From IMG/VR virus record IMGVR_UViG_3300031228_000012, positions 1-45,590 of that record: DNA of 45,590 nt. One strand, 5' to 3'. Source of the DNA: a virus. The notes below the pieces were generated by a model. It was given only the letters and a program-made list of their open reading frames with translations, searched no databases and was not told the DNA's origin. Both the position numbers and the translations under genes were made by a program. Positions 8,566-45,590 of the stretch are shown in pieces (the stretch's first letter is position 1; each line of letters begins with the position of its first letter).

Positions 8566-9129
8566 TCAGCGAACGAACTCAGGCGAACACTGTCCAGGGG
8601 TGTCCTTCGGCGTCGGGCAGAAGAAGCCCTTCCACGCGTTGCCAGTCTTCTTCGAGACACCCGATCGGAACACCATCTCGCCGTGGTCGCACTGCTTGGT
8701 CTCACCGTTTGGCGCCTGGGCGGCACCAGCGGGCTTGCCCTGTGTGCGCGGAGCGCTCTGCTGGCCGCCGTTGGTGTTGACGTTGACCGGGGCACCACCG
8801 CCGTACTCCTTGTGGAAGTAGCGAGCTACGCTGGCCGTCTTCTGGATCAGCTTGGCCGCAACCTCAGCGTTCTCGCCTTCGAGCTGCGCGAGGGCGTCAG
8901 CAATGCTGCCACCGTCCACTGTGATCCACGGGGCGTCATACCCAGCGGCAGCCTTGAGGGTGACGCGGACACGGTTCAGGTCGTTGGTCTCGGGCACTGC
9001 GATGATCTCCTTTGTGTTGGTGTTGATGGCGTGCGGCTTGCCGTCCCACGGGCTGCTGGTCGGTGAGTCTGGGGCGTCTGCCTGCGTCTCGTCAGCGGCG
9101 AAGGGGTCGTTGGCGAACGGGTCGGACAT
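8566..9129 (-). CDS. Hypothetical protein, possible DNA-binding protein with C-terminal Cys/His ribbon
   Basis: Track ORF. AAGGAGGAA RBS. Acidic DPF-repeat N-terminus. C-terminal CDHGEMVFRSGVSKKTGNAWKGFFCP. Confidence 0.7.
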   Translation of the reverse strand: MSDPFANDPFAADETQADAPDSPTSSPWDGKPHAINTNTKEIIAVPETNDLNRVRVTLKAAAGYDAPWITVDGGSIADALAQLEGENAEVAAKLIQKTASVARYFHKEYGGGAPVNVNTNGGQQSAPRTQGKPAGAAQAPNGETKQCDHGEMVFRSGVSKKTGNAWKGFFCPTPKDTPGQCSPEFVR

Positions 9130-9147
9130 GTGTTCCTCCTTGTGTTG

Positions 9148-9282
9148 TCAGCCCTCGTAGAGGGACTGCTGAATCTCGTAGTCATCGAGGTCGGCTTCGA
9201 CCCCGGATTGGCCAAGAGGCCGGCCGAACAGGTCGGCGTACTCCACGACGTCGCGGGCAAGGCCCGCCAGGGTCTCCTGCAT
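9148..9282 (-). CDS. Small hypothetical protein (44 aa)
   Basis: ATG shares its A with the upstream TGA (TGATG). The ORF fills an otherwise empty 150-bp gap. Confidence 0.4.
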   Translation of the reverse strand: MQETLAGLARDVVEYADLFGRPLGQSGVEADLDDYEIQQSLYEG

Positions 9283-9932
9283 CAGAACTCCCCCGTCGCA
9301 CCAGCGGTTCGGTCGAGGCTGTAGGCCCCGTCGCCCCCGTACTGGTTGCTGGTCAGCACCGCCGCTCTTGCGTTGGACACGGCCGAGCGTGACCCCGGAC
9401 CCGCCAGGTACGACCGGCCACGGTTCTTGAAGACCTGGTTCATGCAGTCGGTCAGTGCGTCGACCGCCCGCTCCGTGGCCTTCTGGTCAGCCGGGCTCTC
9501 GGCAGGCTCGTCATTCAGGTAACGGCTGCCGATCAGGTTGGCGTAGCGAGGGTTCCGCTTCCGCAGAAGCGCTCCCCCCTCGTCAAGGTCCAACCGCTCC
9601 GAGCGGTTCTTGACTCGCGCCTCGTGCAACCCGCCCTTCTCCAGGAGCTCTCGCACCTCGGTGACGCCGTAGCGGTAGTTCCCGGTGAAGTAGTCGTAGT
9701 CGACCCGCTCCTGTGAAGCGATCTGCGTCCCGATCCGCGTCAGCAGCTCCCGCCGAGCGGGGGCGTCGAACGCTGCGATCTTCGTGGCGCTGTGTTTCTC
9801 CAGCAGGTGAAGGGAAATCTCCTGCTCGATGTCCTCAGCGGTTGTGACCGCTGCCCACTCGCGGCCGACCTTGGCGGCTGCGCGCTGGATCTCCGGCAGG
9901 ATCTCGGCCAGGGCTGTGCTCTGGTCCATCAC
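9282..9932 (-). CDS. Sigma-factor-like / DNA-binding protein (216 aa)
   Basis: AEDIEQEISLHLLEK resembles sigma-70 region 2. Assignment is tentative. Start is GTG 9932 or ATG 9929. Confidence 0.6.
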   Translation of the reverse strand: MMDQSTALAEILPEIQRAAAKVGREWAAVTTAEDIEQEISLHLLEKHSATKIAAFDAPARRELLTRIGTQIASQERVDYDYFTGNYRYGVTEVRELLEKGGLHEARVKNRSERLDLDEGGALLRKRNPRYANLIGSRYLNDEPAESPADQKATERAVDALTDCMNQVFKNRGRSYLAGPGSRSAVSNARAAVLTSNQYGGDGAYSLDRTAGATGEF

Positions 9933-9943
9933 GTGTATCTCCT

Positions 9944-9975
9944 CCTTTACGTTGTGGTGTTGTGTGACTTAAAGG
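9944..9975 (-). promoter_or_regulatory. Junction unit CCTTTA-N20-TAAAGG (stop codon of 9969..10736 inside one arm, SD of 9282..9932 inside the other)
   Basis: + strand cctttacgttgtggtgttgtgtgacttaaagg. Confidence 0.6.
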
Positions 9976-10736: not shown

Positions 10737-11373
10737 TTGTCTCCTTTACGTTGTTGATTTCCAGAACCGACATCAGTTGCCGGCCGACGTACTCGGCGTA
10801 AACAGGGGGAATACATTCACTGACCCCATTCCTACTCATCCACGGAACGCCCATATCCGCGCGCACGTACGGAACTCCGGAGAAGTTTCCGACAGCGTGA
10901 TAAAAGTCCCCCTCACGTAGTTGCCGCCCCATCTTCACGGTTTTTGCAGTGTGCTCAGCATGCTCGGGTACCGTCAGGGGTATGTTGCTTTCAAACAGCC
11001 TGTGCCTATAGGTATGTATGTCGAACATGGAGCCGCACAGTTCTATCGGGTTTTTCAGCGGTGATCCCGGCACGTTCTCGATTACGTAGGGCTTGCCTAG
11101 GACGTCTAGAGCGCCGCGCATATTTGCAACAAGATCGGGATGTTCATTGCCCTGGATACGCTGGGCCAGGGTGTACGCCTGACAAGGCGGTGATGCGTGG
11201 ATCGCATCGAACTCGTGCCCGTGCTCCTTAACGAACTCGATCGCATCGGCTTGGTGGAACTCGAACGGGTATCGAGGCTGAGGGCTCAGGTCCACGCCGA
11301 CTACTTGAAATCCTGCGTCTGCGTACCCCTTTCCCGCCCCTCCCTGGCAGCAGAACAGGTCTAGTAGTCTCAA
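10729..11373 (-). CDS. Compact DNA (cytosine-5)-methyltransferase
   Basis: Motif I DLFCCQGG, motif IV SPPCQ, motif VI ENVPG, RHRLF, C-terminal IPPVYAEYV. TTG start. Local GC is about 47% in a sampled line. Confidence 0.85.
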   Translation of the reverse strand: MRLLDLFCCQGGAGKGYADAGFQVVGVDLSPQPRYPFEFHQADAIEFVKEHGHEFDAIHASPPCQAYTLAQRIQGNEHPDLVANMRGALDVLGKPYVIENVPGSPLKNPIELCGSMFDIHTYRHRLFESNIPLTVPEHAEHTAKTVKMGRQLREGDFYHAVGNFSGVPYVRADMGVPWMSRNGVSECIPPVYAEYVGRQLMSVLEINNVKETNE

Positions 11374-11379
11374 AGAGCT

Positions 11380-11411
11380 CCTTTACGTTGTCGTGTTGTG
11401 TGTTTTAAAGG
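11380..11411 (-). promoter_or_regulatory. Junction unit CCTTTA-N20-TAAAGG
   Basis: + strand cctttacgttgtcgtgttgtgtgttttaaagg. Stop of 11405..12001 lies inside the distal arm and the SD of the methyltransferase gene inside the proximal arm. Confidence 0.6.
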
Positions 11412-22763: not shown

Positions 22764-22841
22764 GGTGCTTCTCCCTTTATTTTCTTGTGACGCGATACTG
22801 ACACCGCGTGCCCGCTGCCGAAGCAACGGACCACGGAGTCA

Positions 22842-22961
22842 CTACCGTGTGGTAGCGGCGATTGAGTAGTAGTCGATCAGGCCGGCGATACGGTCAACGT
22901 CGACCGTCATGGCTAGTGAGTAGGTGTCGATCAGTTCGATGATGCGTTCGATGTCAAGCAT
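22842..22961 (-). CDS. Small hypothetical protein (39 aa), first ORF of the leftward arm
   Basis: ATG after CCAGGAGGGCACC. Confidence 0.4.
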   Translation of the reverse strand: MLDIERIIELIDTYSLAMTVDVDRIAGLIDYYSIAATTR

Positions 22962-23522
22962 GGTGCCCTCCTGGCGTTGTGTCTGTTCGGTGCTGAGTGG
23001 CACGTACGGACTCGAACCGTAGGGTCACTGTCATATCGGACCCGCTAACCTGCCGTGCCTCTACGCCCGCTGTGCACCACTGAGTGGCATCGCATGGCGT
23101 AGGGAATATCGTCACTAGGGCCGCACGGTGAAGTTTCAAGCCCTGGTCTCACGCTTAGGTTCGTCCAACCTTAGCTTCCGCGTGAGCCGCTACGTGTCTA
23201 GACGTAGCACCTTGTGTAGTTGTCAAGTTTCGAGATCTTCCGCCTCCCCTGTCCCGGTCTCCCGGGTGGTTCCGCTTCCGATGACACTGACTTTAGGGCA
23301 CACATCGTGCGTTCCGCAAGGACAAACCGGACACGTCACCCGTATGGCGTAGACCCCACACTGTTTCCCCAGCTCGGCTCTCAGCTCATGCAGTCAAACA
23401 TCCCCCACAAGGGTGATCTGGACCACGCTGTGTCCGGTGCTCGTAGAGCCGACAGTGTTCTAACAGTAGGGGAGTAAGAGAGGGAGCGATAGCGACCGAA
23501 CGCACGACCCTCCCAGTTCTCG

Positions 23523-23635
23523 CCGCGCCGTAGAGCGCGGCTAGGACCACGCCGTAGAGCGTGGTCATCCGTATACATCCCGAAGCCGTAAGAGCGAAGG
23601 GATGTTGGACGTTCGGCGCGCGGGGGGAGCGCGCC
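23523..23635 (+). other. Array of four GC-rich hairpins, three of which display CGTAGA / CGTAAGA in the loop
   Basis: H1 23523-40 ccgcgc-cgtaga-gcgcgg. H2 23545-66 gaccacgc-cgtaga-gcgtggtc. H3 23576-604 catccc..gccgtaagagcg..gggatg. H4 23615-35 ggcgcgc-gggggga-gcgcgcc. Confidence 0.6.
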
Positions 23636-23657
23636 TCACTACAGGGGGATAAGAGAC

Positions 23658-24092
23658 TTGCTTTGCGCATGGTTAGACGATGGCTCGCCGTGCGGCGAGA
23701 CCGCAGAAGAGCACATGAACATCCCGCTGTGTGGGGAGCACCGGCTAGTGCAGAAGAGTCGCGTAGCTGTCGCTCGCGGGAGTCTAGCTCGGCAAGCAGC
23801 CAACTACTACCCGCTAGATGAATTCCCCGGCTTCTGTTACTTCGCGCTCCTGCCCGACAGCTCGGTCAAGATCGGGTACTCAAACACAGAGACGCTCATG
23901 TCTAAGCGGTTCAAGGCACTCGGCCGTCAGCATGGCGGACCGGTCGTCAAGCTCGCTGTAGTTCCCGGCGGATTCGTAGCGGAAGCCGTCATGCACGATC
24001 GATTCGCTGAGAGTCGAATACCGGGCGATGGTGAGCGGTTCCGATACACCACTGACATTGCGTCATTCATCGCAGACAGCCAAGCACTCTAA
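23658..24092 (+). CDS. T5orf172 / GIY-YIG-like domain protein with N-terminal Cys/His finger
   Basis: TTG start after GGGGGATAAGAGAC. FCYFALLPDSSVKIGYSNTETLMSKRFKAL ... ERFRY. N-terminal C..C..H..C..H. Confidence 0.65.
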   Translation: MLCAWLDDGSPCGETAEEHMNIPLCGEHRLVQKSRVAVARGSLARQAANYYPLDEFPGFCYFALLPDSSVKIGYSNTETLMSKRFKALGRQHGGPVVKLAVVPGGFVAEAVMHDRFAESRIPGDGERFRYTTDIASFIADSQAL

Positions 24093-24388
24093 TGCCGTGG
24101 TCTACGTCCAACCGACGACAGTCACTGCCGTCCAACTGGACGGCGATACGTATCGATGTACTTCGAGATGCCGGGTACCGATGCGAGATACGAGGACCGT
24201 TGTGCTCGGTTCACGCCACTGACGTTGACCACATCCGCCCAGGCAACGACCACCGACGCAGCAACTTGCGTGCCGCATGCTCCCCCTGCCACGGGCGTAA
24301 GTCGGCTGCTGAGGGACACGCACGCAGAGCCGAGCTTCGGGCACGTCGGCATCGGCCGGCAGACAGACACCCTGGTTCGCTTAGCTAG
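24092..24388 (+). CDS. HNH endonuclease
   Basis: CEIRGPLC...VDHIRP...NLRAACSPCH. The position next to the terminase genes is typical of cos phages. Confidence 0.9.
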   Translation: MPWSTSNRRQSLPSNWTAIRIDVLRDAGYRCEIRGPLCSVHATDVDHIRPGNDHRRSNLRAACSPCHGRKSAAEGHARRAELRARRHRPADRHPGSLS

Positions 24389-24699
24389 GTGTGTGCAGGT
24401 ATCGGCTGGCTTAGGCGCAGGGGTATCCGCACCGCTGTCTGTGCAGGTGGGCACGGGTGTGCGCTGCTAGCTGCGTGTGCTGGGCTGCTGCTCCCCTGCA
24501 CCGGGCACCCTCGCTGACCTGCGGGTACGGGCGTGCTGGGTGTGCACTGTGGACACGGGTACCCCCTACCCCAGGGGGGTATGCCCCCGCCCGCCCGCGC
24601 AGGATCGCCGTGTAATGCGGCTCCCTGGCTCGATGCGTCGCATGCTCCCTCTGTTAGGGGGGTATGCACGAACACTTCAACACCCCGGAAGGAGGGGCT
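24389..24699. other. Non-coding, repeat-rich region between HNH and TerS, the putative cos / packaging recognition region
   Basis: No ORF. Repeated GTGTGC (x4), GTGCAGGT (x2), GGGTAT(C/G)C (x3). Imperfect inverted repeat TACCCCCT-ACCCC-AGGGGGGTA. Confidence 0.4.
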
Positions 24700-25098
24700 G
24701 TGACAGACGCCAAACCGTCTGCGCCAAGAGCCCCCCGGGGGCTCAAATCCGCAGGCCGGAACCTATGGAAAGACATCACCGGGATGTGGGATCTACGCCC
24801 GGACGAGCTTCGCATCCTCGGGGACGCGTGCCGCGAAGCGGACCTCATCGAACGGCTCGAAAAGGGCCTTGAAGAGGCCCCGTTGACCGCGTTTGGGTCT
24901 CAAGGGCAGGAAGTTATCCACCCGTTGTTCTCCGAAGTGCGCCAACACCGCTCTACGCTGGCCGCTCTACTGCGACAGCTCAAGCTCACGGAAGCCGACG
25001 AGGACGTTGACGCCGGGTCCGGTCCCATGAGCCGTCAGGAGAGCGCTACGAAGGCCGCCAAGGCTCGCTGGGGCGCCACTAAGAAGCAGGCGACCTGA
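24700..25098 (+). CDS. terS: Terminase small subunit (P27-family-like)
   Basis: GTG start after GGAAGGAGGGGCT. GRNLWKDITGMWDLRPDELRILGDACREADLIERL. Position between HNH/cos and TerL. Confidence 0.8.
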   Translation: MTDAKPSAPRAPRGLKSAGRNLWKDITGMWDLRPDELRILGDACREADLIERLEKGLEEAPLTAFGSQGQEVIHPLFSEVRQHRSTLAALLRQLKLTEADEDVDAGSGPMSRQESATKAAKARWGATKKQAT

Positions 25099-25837: not shown

Positions 25838-25911
25838 GGCTGCGTAGCTCAGACGGTTAGAGCGCCACCTTGTCACGGTGGAGGTCGCCAGTTCGATTCT
25901 GGTCGTGGTCG
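25838..25911 (+). tRNA. tRNA-Asp: tRNA-Asp (GTC)
   Basis: Manual cloverleaf: acceptor GGCTGCG/CGTGGTC (3 G-U pairs), D stem GCTC/GAGC, anticodon stem CCACC/GGTGG with loop TTGTCAC, T arm GCCAG-TTCGATT-CTGGT. No encoded CCA. Confidence 0.75.
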
Positions 25912-25943
25912 CTGAAGGGAGGGGCAACCCTCCCCCACCCCAT

Positions 25944-26018
25944 TCCTTGGTAGCTCAATGGCAGAGCACCCGCCTGTTAAGCGGGTGGTTGGAGGTTCGA
26001 GCCCTCCCCGGGGAGCCA
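25944..26018 (+). tRNA. tRNA-Asn: tRNA-Asn (GTT), CCA encoded
   Basis: Acceptor TCCTTGG/CCGGGGA, D stem GCTC/GAGC, anticodon stem CCCGC/GCGGG with loop CTGTTAA, T arm GGAGG-TTCGAGC-CCTCC, then G-CCA. Confidence 0.85.
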
Positions 26019-26019
26019 T

Positions 26020-26093
26020 TCGGGAGCACACAGGCGCAGTCCAACGGTCTCCAAAACCGTTCGGCGAGGGTTCAAGTCCCTCCTCCCGGGCCA
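26020..26093 (+). tRNA. tRNA-Trp: tRNA-Trp (CCA) with aberrant D-arm, CCA encoded
   Basis: Acceptor TCGGGAG/CTCCCGG, anticodon stem ACGGT/ACCGT with loop CTCCAAA, T arm GAGGG-TTCAAGT-CCCTC. The 17 nt between acceptor and anticodon stem (CACACAGGCGCAGTCCA) gave me no canonical D stem. Confidence 0.55.
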
Positions 26094-44657: not shown

Positions 44658-45590
44658 ATGACACAGTTCCTACTCGACATCTCCCACTGGCAGGGCGGCA
44701 ATCCTGACCTCGCGCAGGCTAAGCGTGAGGGGATTGTCGGCGTCATCCTCAAGGCCACCCAGGGCTCCAGCTTCGTAGACTCGGACTTCACGTCCAACCT
44801 CGCCCGTGCCCGTGCAGCGGGCTTGCTCGTCGCTGCGTACCACTACCAGGAGGCGAGCGTCAGCGCTGCCGCACAGGTGGCGCACATCAAGAGGAACATC
44901 CCCCAGGACGTCCCGGTTATCCCGGACGTCGAACACGGTAGCGGGCACACGAACAAGACCCGGACCATCGTCAAGCTCCTCAAGGAGGCTGGCTACCAGG
45001 TCCCGCTGTCGTATATCCCCGGGTGGTATTGGCAGTCGATCGGCTCCCCGAGCCTCGCTGGACTCCCCCCGCTCTGGGCGTCCCGGTACCCCGACAACGT
45101 CCAGAGCTACTACAAGGACGAGTACGCCCAGGTCGAGCGCTCGTTCATGCACTTCTGGGACAGCTACGGCGGGCTCGACGTCAAGCTGCTCCAGTTCACC
45201 AGCTCGGGCCGAGTGGCCGGATACGGCCCTCTGGACGTCAACGCATTCCGTGGAACCTACGCAGAACTCGAAGCCCTGTTCACAGGGAAGAATGGAAGTG
45301 AGGACGAATTGTCCGCTGAGCAGTACAAGGCACTCAACAACAAGCTGACTGAACTCCTTACCGCCGTCCAGAAGGTCCCGGCGCAGTCCGCTACGGAGCT
45401 GCTGAACCGCGACGTCATCGACGTCCCGTTCGAGTCCGAGGACAAGCAGTGGAAGGTGAAGTACGCGCTGGCCGGTATCTGGCGCCAGGCTGACGCTGCC
45501 CGCGATGCTGCGCTGAACGACGGCACGGTAGACGTCTCTGCGCTAGCCGACGAGCTGCTGCCGCACCTACAGGGTGCGCTGGCAACCGTG
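44658..45590 (+). CDS. Endolysin, N-terminal GH25 muramidase domain (3' end continues at 2..196; full length about 333 aa)
   Basis: AAAGGA RBS. LLDISHWQG, VILKATQG, AAYHY, LLQFTSSGRVAGYGPLDVNAF. The ORF is open to the window end, which is why it is absent from the track. Confidence 0.9.
   Translation, partial: MTQFLLDISHWQGGNPDLAQAKREGIVGVILKATQGSSFVDSDFTSNLARARAAGLLVAAYHYQEASVSAAAQVAHIKRNIPQDVPVIPDVEHGSGHTNKTRTIVKLLKEAGYQVPLSYIPGWYWQSIGSPSLAGLPPLWASRYPDNVQSYYKDEYAQVERSFMHFWDSYGGLDVKLLQFTSSGRVAGYGPLDVNAFRGTYAELEALFTGKNGSEDELSAEQYKALNNKLTELLTAVQKVPAQSATELLNRDVIDVPFESEDKQWKVKYALAGIWRQADAARDAALNDGTVDVSALADELLPHLQGALATV
45464..45590. repeat. Second copy of the 127-bp terminal repeat
   Basis: Identical to 1..127. 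Confidence 0.95.

Follow-up and report, generated by a model that had tools for sequence, protein, structure and literature searches.

Early and late control in L5-like phages

The leftward early promoter P_left of the phages L5, D29 and StarStuff yields a non-coding RNA of about 500 nt. No other phage transcript is as abundant at any stage of infection, and the RNA is stable, toxic and partly essential (Dedrick et al. 2017, PMC5712189). In L5 this RNA starts at position 51,672, the A of GTGTCA, and about 90% of the P_left transcripts end at 51,140-51,190, where no terminator is seen and where the route of 3'-end formation is called unclear; the transcript level downstream of the RNA drops by more than 90%, and a deletion of its promoter-distal part (51,195-51,407) could not be recovered (PMC5712189). 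The late transcripts of L5 begin about 230 bp from the left end, as measured by RNA-seq (PMC5712189). Here we show how this arrangement compares with a 696-bp region (positions 22962-23657) of a viral DNA of 45,590 nt, the IMG/VR record IMGVR_UViG_3300031228_000012, which in its full length is the window of this analysis. The RNA data come from L5, D29 and StarStuff; the window phage is known from metagenomes only.

An earlier account of this DNA, which we call the sequence-only reading, had described the region as a divergent control region without open reading frames (ORFs), packed with repeats and holding a tRNA-like T-arm and an array of hairpins with CGTAGA loops. As an observation this is confirmed, and as an interpretation it is supported in part. 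The blocks of the region align one by one with the P_left (early) and P_right (late) regions in L5-like phages, and we consider the region very likely to be a fused early and late control region, the counterpart of both. Homology, positions, conserved pairing and the location of the cohesive-end site (cos) are established directly by this comparison. For the explanation taken as one whole, that is, the identity of the region together with the two RNA roles discussed below, we estimate a probability of roughly 0.7. As to coding capacity, the six ORFs of 61-94 aa in or overlapping the region have no match in PHROGs and no tblastn match in the related loci, while the flanking endonuclease and HNH genes do match in the same searches.

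The window phage is an L5-like (Cluster A-type) temperate siphophage whose closest relatives are Amycolatopsis-type prophages, and its host is probably a member of the Pseudonocardiaceae. Related loci are cited below by labels such as L015 or L056.

A predicted leftward promoter and its non-coding leader

A P_left-like early promoter is found on the minus strand at 23290-23319, where 23319-23282 reads TTGCGG-18 nt-TAAAGT-CAGTGTCA, with the -35 element TTGCGG at 23319-23314, an 18-nt spacer, and the -10 element TAAAGT at 23295-23290. In a MAFFT alignment of six relatives with the mapped P_left of L5 (alignment A6), three elements fall into common columns, namely the TTG of the -35, the -10 and the GTCA motif at the start. 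The versions of this promoter in the relatives are stronger: TTGACC-17-TAAAGT in L019, TTGACA-18-TAGTTT in L031 and TTGACA-17-TAAAGT in L056, all three close to consensus, and TTGAAC-18-TACGGT in L021. By its correspondence with the mapped L5 start, early transcription in the window would begin near 23282, at the A of GTGTCA, and the promoter should yield a non-coding RNA of about 285 nt. Some 320 nt separate the promoter from the ATG at 22961, and the ORFs in this interval have no homologues. As a separate observation, a terminator-like hairpin CGGGTGACGTGTCCG followed by GTTTGTCCTT (23328-23342, minus strand) lies immediately upstream of, and overlaps, the predicted leftward -35.

The body of the predicted early leader RNA (23060-23282, minus strand) contains three hairpins, at 23148-23186, 23189-23208 and 23075-23088. 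The first had been noticed from the sequence as a stem CTCACGC/GCGTGAG around AGGTT-CGTCC-AACCT, and we recover it. It is shared with L056, where the inner AGCUAAGGUUGGACGA is identical and the outer stem covaries, from CUCACGC/GCGUGAG in the window to GCGUAGGG/CCCUACGC; L015 has a looser version. This pattern identifies the stem as a putative conserved module of the leftward RNA. The palindrome at 23189-23208, which had also been noticed, is present and folds as the next hairpin of the leftward RNA, and the block TTGTCAAG is also found in L019, L021, L026, L015 and L056. The small hairpin at 23075-23088 holds the second copy of a 10-bp direct repeat CTGAGTGGCA, whose two occurrences (22993-23002 and 23080-23089) are as the sequence-only reading gave them. 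Taken alone this repeat is weak, with about 0.2 such pairs expected per 700 bp by our own estimate; its second copy repeats the 3' strand and trailer (UGCCACUCAG) of the tRNA-like module described in the next section, 21 nt upstream of that module.

The leader also contains GTAGTTGTCAAG (23216-23227), which resembles the L5 stoperator and has counterparts at the same place in L019, L021, L026, L015 and L056. It is the sole stoperator-like site that we detected in the window and it lies in the transcribed leader, so that the L5-type arrangement of an operator overlapping the -35 plus dispersed stoperators is not what we find here. Stoperator-like repeats do occur in the equivalent region of three relatives, GTTnTTGTCAACT in L031 (L031:3270-4260), TCTGTCAGTTCAA in L021 (L021:3157, 3849) and CGTTCCATGTCAAG in L055 (L055:2458, 2530, 2657), and one of the copies in L031, as in L021, overlaps the -35 of the promoter homologous to P_left. 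Two other candidates for a dispersed site were rejected. The element CCGCAAGGAC (five copies, one of them over the -35) reads as coding-sequence bias, with the codons CGC AAG GAC. The heptamer CGTAGAG as a genome-wide stoperator was dropped too, as its 15 copies in the window have no extended context in common and are mostly in coding sequence.

A tRNA-like module at the end of the predicted leader

The most informative feature of the region is a tRNA-like module of 62 nt (22998-23059, minus strand), at the end of the predicted leader. Its acceptor stem pairs GGCACG (23059-23054) with CGTGCC (23004-22999), its interior (23053-23022) consists of a short GG-containing linker and one arm, and its T-arm, TACGG-TTCGAGT-CCGTA (23021-23005), is followed by the acceptor strand, a discriminator A at 22998 and the trailer CU. 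The acceptor has 6 bp and the T-stem 5 bp, the 32 nt between acceptor and T-arm do not include an anticodon arm of normal size, and the module ends 36 nt before the first early gene. The T-arm and the CGTGCCA after it had been reported from the sequence, as a T-arm for which there was no cloverleaf. Both sequences are where they were placed, and ARAGORN and the Rfam tRNA model agree about the cloverleaf; what does not stand is the notion of a fragment, for this is a complete and conserved tRNA-like module.

How widely is the module conserved? A strict descriptor required an acceptor of 6-8 bp and a T-stem of 4-5 bp, together at least 11 bp, plus the loop TTCRANY. It has 33 matches in the 327 kb of the window and its relatives, compared to 0.3 in dinucleotide shuffles. 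Copies are found in the window, L015, L019 (two), L021 (four), L022 (four), L031, L033 and L055, and also in L5, D29, EagleEye, Georgie2, ArcherNM, Serenity, BobSwaget, AnnaL29 and Twister. The module keeps the same strand and position in about 18 diverged phages and prophages, and L055 and L056 keep the promoter blocks together with the tRNA-like module. Setting aside tRNAs, all descriptor matches are on the early-gene strand except for two plus-strand ones in the distant loci L025 and L032, and the modules on the early strand lie either directly before the first early gene or in the gaps between early genes.

The Amycolatopsis prophages L021 (of Amycolatopsis minnesotensis JCM 14545) and L022 are a case of the latter. 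Each has four minimal modules of 44-51 nt on the early-gene strand (3229-3184, 1459-1414, 629-586 and 180-130 in L021; 3942-3897, 2175-2130, 1344-1301 and 895-845 in L022), within each prophage three of the four share one acceptor sequence, and the L021 copies start 8-13 nt past the stop codons of successive early genes. In D29, a second module sought at the small RNA reported as "63-64 intergenic" is absent, and there is a single module only.

Across all these copies the acceptor sequences vary yet stay complementary (GGCACG, GCCACCCG, GTCACCCG, GCCTGCC, GCGCGT, GGGTAG), the T-stems do likewise, and the trailer after the discriminator is mostly ACU. The anticodon region is variable or absent. 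A MAFFT alignment of all module copies misaligned the 5' acceptor strands, and we used instead an alignment of concatenated stems and a model made from Cluster A phages only. The covariation on the concatenated stems (alignment A3) is 0.97, compared to 0.21 in shuffles, a score that is partly circular because the descriptor had demanded pairing. A plain sequence alignment of the nine Cluster A copies results in a four-way cloverleaf with compensatory changes in 14 of its 32 pairs. The covariance model R1, built from nine Cluster A phages only, finds the window module at 22993-23064 on the minus strand with 23.6 bits and an E-value of about 1e-3 (full model, 294.5 kb searched); the same model also matches true tRNAs, so that it shows tRNA-likeness and not a family distinct from tRNAs.

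Standard tRNA finders pass over the module. ARAGORN reports only three tRNAs in the window (25838-26093), none of them here, and the Rfam tRNA model has no match at the module up to E = 10. The L015 copy is called by neither method, and the L5, D29 and L033 copies are not called by Rfam. The only Rfam match at the window module is a weak one, mascRNA/MEN-beta-like, with E = 7.6; Rfam 15 contains no family for the module, and no meaningful family matches any other element of the region. We found no description of the module in the searchable literature (subscription papers lay outside the search) or in Rfam 15, and in the sources searched it appears to be undescribed.

Could the module be a functionless decayed tRNA gene or the remnant of an attachment site, with the other leftward features due to chance? 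The silence of ARAGORN and of the Rfam tRNA model would agree with decay, the local fold is not significant (z = -0.7), and the 10-bp direct repeat that flanks the module could be an insertion scar. A remnant would hardly be kept on one strand and in one position in about 18 diverged phages and prophages, with stems that vary while their pairing is kept, nor be found as four intergenic copies in each of L021 and L022; moreover, the integrase is a serine recombinase and lies far off, at 1093-2574, and the region of L5 that overlaps the module could not be deleted. We regard decay as very improbable. The related idea of an integration site in a tRNA was rejected for the window, as the serine recombinase integrase is about 21 kb away and the element is conserved as an RNA fold.

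Our preferred reading is that the module is a processing signal, and here its position in L5 is what matters. The L5 module occupies 51,135-51,226, so that the published end zone at 51,140-51,190 lies inside it. Its discriminator is at about 51,135 and its first acceptor base at 51,226; the discriminator of the D29 module is at about 47,981. The left edge of the published L5 transcript peak, which was probed from 51,133, falls at the 3' end of the L5 module, and the deletion 51,195-51,407 that could not be recovered takes out the 5' third of the module. RNase P, RNase Z and the CCA-adding enzyme read the stack of acceptor and T-arm, with the T-loop and the GG-containing linker, and these are parts that the modules retain.

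The proposed sequence of events for the early side is as follows. A housekeeping-type promoter (TTGCGG-18-TAAAGT) would start leftward transcription near 23282, and the product would be a structured non-coding leader, about 285 nt long and corresponding to the L5 P_left RNA, that ends in the 62-nt tRNA-like module. Host tRNA-maturation enzymes would recognize the module, RNase P at its 5' side and RNase Z or 3' trimming at the discriminator, and the CCA-adding enzyme may act on it too. Processing would thereby define and protect the 3' end of the non-coding RNA, and would cut this RNA loose from the early mRNA that follows, whose turnover would then be faster. Such a detachment with faster mRNA turnover would account for the drop of more than 90% in downstream transcripts in L5. 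That the module acts as a processing and 3'-end-protecting signal is, from its sequence and placement, a proposition to which we give even odds. The more general proposal, that L5-like actinophages use miniature tRNA mimics as RNA punctuation cut by host tRNA-maturation enzymes, we put a little below that.

The predicted late promoter and the hairpin array

On the plus strand, about 190 bp from the early promoter, is a P_right-like late promoter zone (23436-23467; alignment A5) with a -10-like TAACAG at 23462-23467. A CGTAGAG heptamer (23442-23448) falls near the expected -35. In all relatives the -10-like element is followed directly by a purine-rich block GAGGGAG..AAGAGAGGGAGCGAnAGCGACCGAAC, which in the window is the conserved start of the late leader (23468-23515). 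The core of this block, GAGGGAGCGATAGCGACCGAAC (23480-23501), can be read as a GANA-loop hairpin that has two tandem G.A/A.G steps, and GGGAG...CUCCC closes the whole stretch. The mapped late start of L5 is at the position equivalent to this block. The L5 hairpins are just downstream of it, and since they follow the start of the late RNA, the hairpins are best read as RNA.

The 22-nt GA-rich motif GAGGGAGCGANAGCGACCGAAC of this core (23480-23501, with its two tandem G.A steps) is also found beyond this phage group. It occurs exactly in five seemingly unrelated metagenome contigs, some of them of low G+C, and the 22-mer is also present in L026 (recovered a second time as L053) and in L054; the occurrences are L048:184-205, L049:1106-1127, L050:1909-1930, L051:4649-4670, L052:32-53 and L054:2001-2022. 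By a rough estimate of ours, this recurrence exceeds what chance would give for 21 fixed bases. The hairpin has no match in Rfam.

Next in the window come four GC-rich hairpins (23522-23635), all of which had been seen before and all of which we confirm: 23522-23541 and 23545-23566, both with CGTAGA loops, 23576-23604, with CGTAAGAG in an internal loop, and 23615-23635, with a GGGGGGA loop. The CGTAGAG copies are likewise where they had been reported, with plus-strand starts at 23442, 23529 and 23553, a minus-strand copy at 23059-23065, and the variant CGTAAGAG at 23587. Compared to shuffled sequences, the hairpin stretch folds with z = -3.0 (none of 200 shuffles is as good), and 23470-23660 with z = -3.2.

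The relatives show the same kind of array in very different forms. Counted by eye from folds or sequences, there are six GC-rich hairpins in L5 (z = -10), five in Scowl (-3.9), three in L015 (-6.9), three in L033 (-5.7), five in L026 (-6.6), five in L019 (-4.0) and three in L021 (-4.9), next to the four in the window (-3.2); L055 with five and L056 with one are given without a z-score. Late leaders are thus strongly structured in most of the relatives tested (z from -3.9 to -10) and less so in the window and in L031 (-2.9). Whichever side cos is on, the array separates the late-start block from the first rightward gene, which in every case is one for a nuclease or HNH protein. Its distance from cos is about 1 kb in the window (array on the left), 230-400 bp in L5 and about 700 bp in L015 (array on the right in both). 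The Shine-Dalgarno-like motif TA(A)GRG accompanies the hairpins, with 22 copies where shuffles have 8.4 +/- 2.5, and with a strand bias of 22 to 6; it sits between the hairpins in the relatives and inside the loops in the window. A left-end hairpin array is not described in the searchable literature, to which the same exclusion of subscription papers applies.

What are the hairpins for? The sequence-only reading had proposed that a protein recognizes the common loop. A phage RNA-binding protein bound to CGUAGA could be an antiterminator of the N/boxB kind, or could act on a translational operator of the late operon. The window gives this some appeal, with two identical CGTAGA loops, a third hairpin that carries CGTAAGAG, an enrichment of CGTAGAG in the region, and an array placed in the late leader, where antitermination sites are expected. 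In several relatives, by our own reading of the folds, the loops end in GAA (CUGAA, UUGAA, UCGAA, UGAAA), and the loops of boxB are similar to such GAA-ending loops. But the loops are not conserved in L055, L056, L5, L015, L033, L026 or L019. The nearest relatives that are not identical, L055 and L056 (66% and 62% identity in the adjacent endonuclease), have TGGG, TTAG, ATCAA and GGC in place of CGTAGA, and L056 has a single GC hairpin. Within L5 all six hairpins have different loops. The sequence-only reading had itself named loops that differ among close relatives, together with a deletion without phenotype, as grounds against it, and so far as these relatives allow the comparison, the loops do differ. 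The two identical loops of the window belong to an 18-mer duplicated at 89% identity, hairpin number ranges from 1 to 6, nothing matches in Rfam, and no candidate N-like protein was identified. We read the two CGTAGA loops as a recent duplication and not as a recognition code. The hairpins survive as RNA elements, and protein recognition of their loops, whether boxB/put-like or as a translational operator, is unlikely.

A second possibility is that the hairpins are terminators without U-tracts, or pause sites, that follow a constitutive late promoter and form a checkpoint for a phage factor, as in the PR'-tR'/Q system of lambda. This we think slightly less probable still. Efficient intrinsic termination by mycobacterial RNA polymerase depends on a U-tract, the hairpins have no T-run after them, and a terminator scan of 23517-23635 on both strands finds none. 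One hairpin suffices in L056, and for L5 there is no report of a short, abundant leader RNA early in infection. The points in its favor are that the hairpins come directly downstream of the late start in all relatives, that a D29 preprint reports an unexplained short left-end transcript, NC5, and that the timing of late transcription in Cluster A phages was left unexplained (PMC5712189). Both loop-binding antitermination and a Q-like checkpoint are less likely than a generic structured leader.

The third possibility is that repeats and palindromes act as DNA, as a replication origin, iterons, repressor operators, or terminase-binding sites of the cosB kind, which in part the sequence-only reading had also offered. 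A long ORF-free stretch adjoins the packaging genes here, one CGTAGAG copy is near the expected late -35 and agrees with the L5 stoperator at 8 of 13 positions (our own comparison), GTAGTTGTCAAG is stoperator-like, and clear stoperator repeats occur in the equivalent region of L031, L021 and L055. On the other hand, cos is 950 bp away, the CGTAGAG copies are 87, 24 and 34 bp apart with no regular spacing, and the window has no genome-wide family of sites with extended context. The strand bias of TA(A)GRG (22 vs. 6) fits RNA better than duplex DNA. The array is placed relative to the late start, whichever side cos lies on: cos is to its left in L5, L015 and Scowl and to its right in the window, L033, L026, L019 and L021, which excludes a role of the cosB type. 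We found no evidence for an origin, iterons or packaging sites, and consider sites of this kind improbable.

CGTAGAG itself is overrepresented in the window as a whole, with 15 copies against 5.45 expected and none of 100 shuffles reaching 15. Four copies are in the 696-bp region, and most of the others are in coding sequence without a common extended context. One of them belongs to GTTGTCAGCCCTCGTAGAGGGACTGCTGA (9144-9172), which forms a small hairpin CCCTC-GTA-GAGGG between the leftward ORFs 8566-9129 and 9282-9932. A search of IMG/VR for pairs of GCCGTAGAGCG returned 10 loci, all of them coding or tandem-repeat sequence without hairpins.

We are left with a late-operon leader whose hairpin array is conserved but evolves fast, and which goes with the late start, not with cos. 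In the proposed scheme, the late promoter (-10-like TAACAG) would start transcription at the conserved purine-rich hairpin. Late transcription would then pass four hairpins that are separated by, or display, UAGAG/UAAGAG Shine-Dalgarno-like motifs, and would run on through the genes for the endonuclease and HNH, past cos, to the terminase and structural genes. The structured generic 5' leader could protect this long transcript from 5'-end-dependent decay. We offer the stabilizing role, by analogy, as a tentative suggestion.

How firm is the explanation?

Several observations weigh against the explanation as a whole. On the leftward side, a generic sigma-70 promoter scan calls no promoter in the region, and the -35 TTGCGG is weak. 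Start sites and processing in the window phage are predicted by homology, and these, like stabilization, we infer. The predicted leftward RNA does not fold with unusual stability (z = -1.3), and no repeated stoperator family was found within the window, unlike in L5, L031, L021 and L055. As for the module, the descriptor finds none in L026. The stack of acceptor and T-stem is 11 bp in the window and in Cluster A, where a canonical tRNA has 12 bp. The partial circularity of the A3 score and the matches of R1 to true tRNAs belong here as well. On the rightward side, the wide variation of hairpin number (1-6) and sequence makes it difficult to assign a specific function; L056 has one hairpin only, and L054 is without the TAGAG motif. 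The stabilizing role, drawn from analogy, is the least certain part.

Genome layout and the position of cos

The ends of the window, 1-127 and 45464-45590, are identical over 127 bases, which identifies it as a circularly assembled genome of about 45,463 bp (about 45.46 kb). Two other public assemblies of this phage are 100% identical to it over the parts compared, L058 (ENA, 45,604 bp) over 22841-24700 and L059 (a Logan assembly) over 22841-24477. A search of IMG/VR with the adjacent endonuclease found no relatives.

Positions 1-22961 contain leftward genes, which include the serine integrase (1093-2574) and a DNA polymerase gene with about 72% nucleotide identity to Cluster A mycobacteriophages, in the same orientation. 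The first leftward ORF (22842-22961, minus strand, 39 aa) has its ATG at 22961 and a Shine-Dalgarno-like AGGAGGG at 22972-22966. It has no PHROG or tblastn homologue, and its position after the tRNA-like module is that of gene 89 in L5 and D29. The ORF contains a 45-nt direct repeat (22857-22901 and 22911-22955, 73% identity, 54 nt apart). A 14-mer that includes a Shine-Dalgarno sequence, ACAACGTAAAGGAG, occurs exactly three times on the minus strand (9942-9955, 10741-10754 and 11378-11391), each copy near the start of a long leftward ORF.

From 23658 the genes run rightward, in the order T5orf172/MUG113-type endonuclease, HNH, small terminase, three tRNAs, large terminase and structural genes. 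The endonuclease (to 24092, plus strand) starts at a TTG at 23658 or an ATG further in, with a Shine-Dalgarno-like AGGGGGATAAGAGAC from 23643. It matches Pfam PF13455 and the endonuclease phrog_17889 (E = 9e-47), and has 50% identity to Scowl gp1. The HNH endonuclease (24092-24388, plus strand; Pfam PF01844) is kept in all relatives, and no gene stands between it and the genome end. Proteins of Amycolatopsis, Kibdelosporangium, Nocardia and Rhodococcus prophages and of Cluster A and Rhodococcus phages share 60-77% identity with the large terminase.

The cos site is at about 24606-24616, between HNH and small terminase, and the control region is about 950 bp to its left. The cos region (24574-24621, plus strand) consists of the palindrome GGGGGGTATGCCCCC (G6..C5, 24574-24588), N17, the cohesive end CGCCGTGTAA (a predicted 10 nt, 24606-24615) and the left end TGCGGC (24616-24621). 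This layout matches the ends of L5 (GGGGGGTTCCCCC...CGGTCGGTTA / TGCGGCC), the left end of Scowl (TGCGGC...) and L015:5006-5058, and its general form, a G-run/C-run palindrome, about 17-21 nt, a 10-nt end and TGCGGC, is found across the lineage; the counterparts are L012:1, L013:1-19, L015:5006-5058, L021:4650-4710, L022:5280-5340, L026:3690-3740 and L033:5520-5580. Two Logan contigs of related phages add physical evidence. L012 starts exactly at TGCGGCTC, which is position 24616 of the window. L013 starts with GCTCTTCCGATCT, which we take to be an Illumina adapter tail, joined directly to TGCGGC, so that the DNA molecule must have physically ended there. The contigs L012-L014, relatives by their large terminase, stop at the genome end and therefore lack the control region, but they locate cos. 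The alternative that the control region is itself the junction of the virion ends, or a cosB, is ruled out by the cos architecture and by the contig starts, which place the ends at 24606-24616.

A comparison of gene order (window 23468-24616, L015:5050-6220, L5 1-2628) shows that cos has moved relative to the HNH gene within the lineage. The late start comes first in the window, L033, L026, L019 and L021, followed by hairpins, (endonuclease), HNH, cos and small terminase. L5, Scowl and L015 begin instead with cos, which precedes late start, hairpins and nuclease/HNH, and next come the small terminase or other genes.

What the module would explain

For the window itself the result is mostly a re-annotation, as a diverged new member of a known regulatory layout. 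The wider interest is in the module, found from mycobacteriophages to Amycolatopsis and Saccharopolyspora prophages and placed at the end of the P_left RNA, which makes a testable hypothesis. If the hypothesis is true, the abundant, essential and toxic P_left RNA would have a tRNA-capped 3' end formed by cutting. Its stability would then be explained, and so would the way in which the early RNA of L5 and D29 obtains a 3' end without a terminator. The early operon of some prophages would be chopped into separate messages, and phages and bacteria would have a counterpart to the MALAT1-mascRNA and mitochondrial punctuation mechanisms. The tRNA-like end could even underlie the toxicity of the RNA, for example by occupying tRNA-handling enzymes. 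As D29 and L5 are workhorses of mycobacterial genetics, diagnostics and phage therapy, their early regulation is also of practical interest.

Comparison with known systems

The closest system is that of P_left and P_right in L5 and D29 (PMC5712189), whose blocks align directly with those of the window. Both have a housekeeping-type promoter at the head of the leftward early operon, a non-coding leader several hundred nt long that finishes with a tRNA-like module of the same kind before the first early gene, and a purine-rich late start followed by a hairpin array and then by a nuclease or HNH gene. The differences are that cos lies between P_left and P_right at the extreme genome end in L5 and after HNH in the window; that the leader is about 285 nt in the window compared to about 540 nt in L5; and that the module is reduced, with 62 nt where L5 has about 92 nt and other Cluster A phages have as many as 104 nt. 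Unlike L5, the window has no stoperator family that we could detect, its integrase is a serine recombinase, and its likely host belongs to the Pseudonocardiaceae and not to Mycobacterium.

For the late leader, the nut boxB of lambda and the put sites of HK022 are alike in being stem-loops in the leader of a very long operon, close behind its phage promoter. They differ in that the window and its relatives have no conserved loop or bulge, that no boxA-like element was noticed, that hairpin number varies, and that the sequences are not conserved between phages of related hosts. Unlike intrinsic terminators, the GC-rich stems at 23517-23635 have no T-run, and unlike cosB-type sites the array has no fixed position beside cos. 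The 5' hairpins of the ompA type and the STAB-SD of Bacillus cryIIIA are stabilizers of long-lived transcripts. They share with the late leader a 5'-terminal hairpin and Shine-Dalgarno-like sequences far upstream of the start codon, here in the form of TA(A)GRG and GGGAG enriched on the sense strand; the likeness is one of analogy.

For the module, a canonical tRNA gene is the obvious reference, from which it differs in lacking, by tRNA finders, a full cloverleaf and anticodon arm. Mitochondrial tRNA punctuation and RNAs matured by RNase P, such as the C4 RNA of phages P1 and P7, are alike in using tRNA-shaped intercistronic processing signals, for which L021 and L022 would be the parallel. 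The phage elements differ in being non-decoding, the 44-51-nt forms are little beyond an acceptor and T-arm minihelix, and their processing role is a prediction. The mascRNA of MALAT1 and MEN-beta (Rfam RF01684) is eukaryotic and without sequence homology, and its weak match of 15.7 bits is far under the family threshold of 42.5 bits; it is nevertheless the sole Rfam family with even a weak match to the window module, and it too is a tRNA-like fold at the end of an abundant non-coding RNA, where it replaces a terminator and is processed by RNase P and RNase Z. Outside any curated family, then, the module by analogy resembles the 3'-end system of MALAT1-mascRNA or tRNA punctuation.

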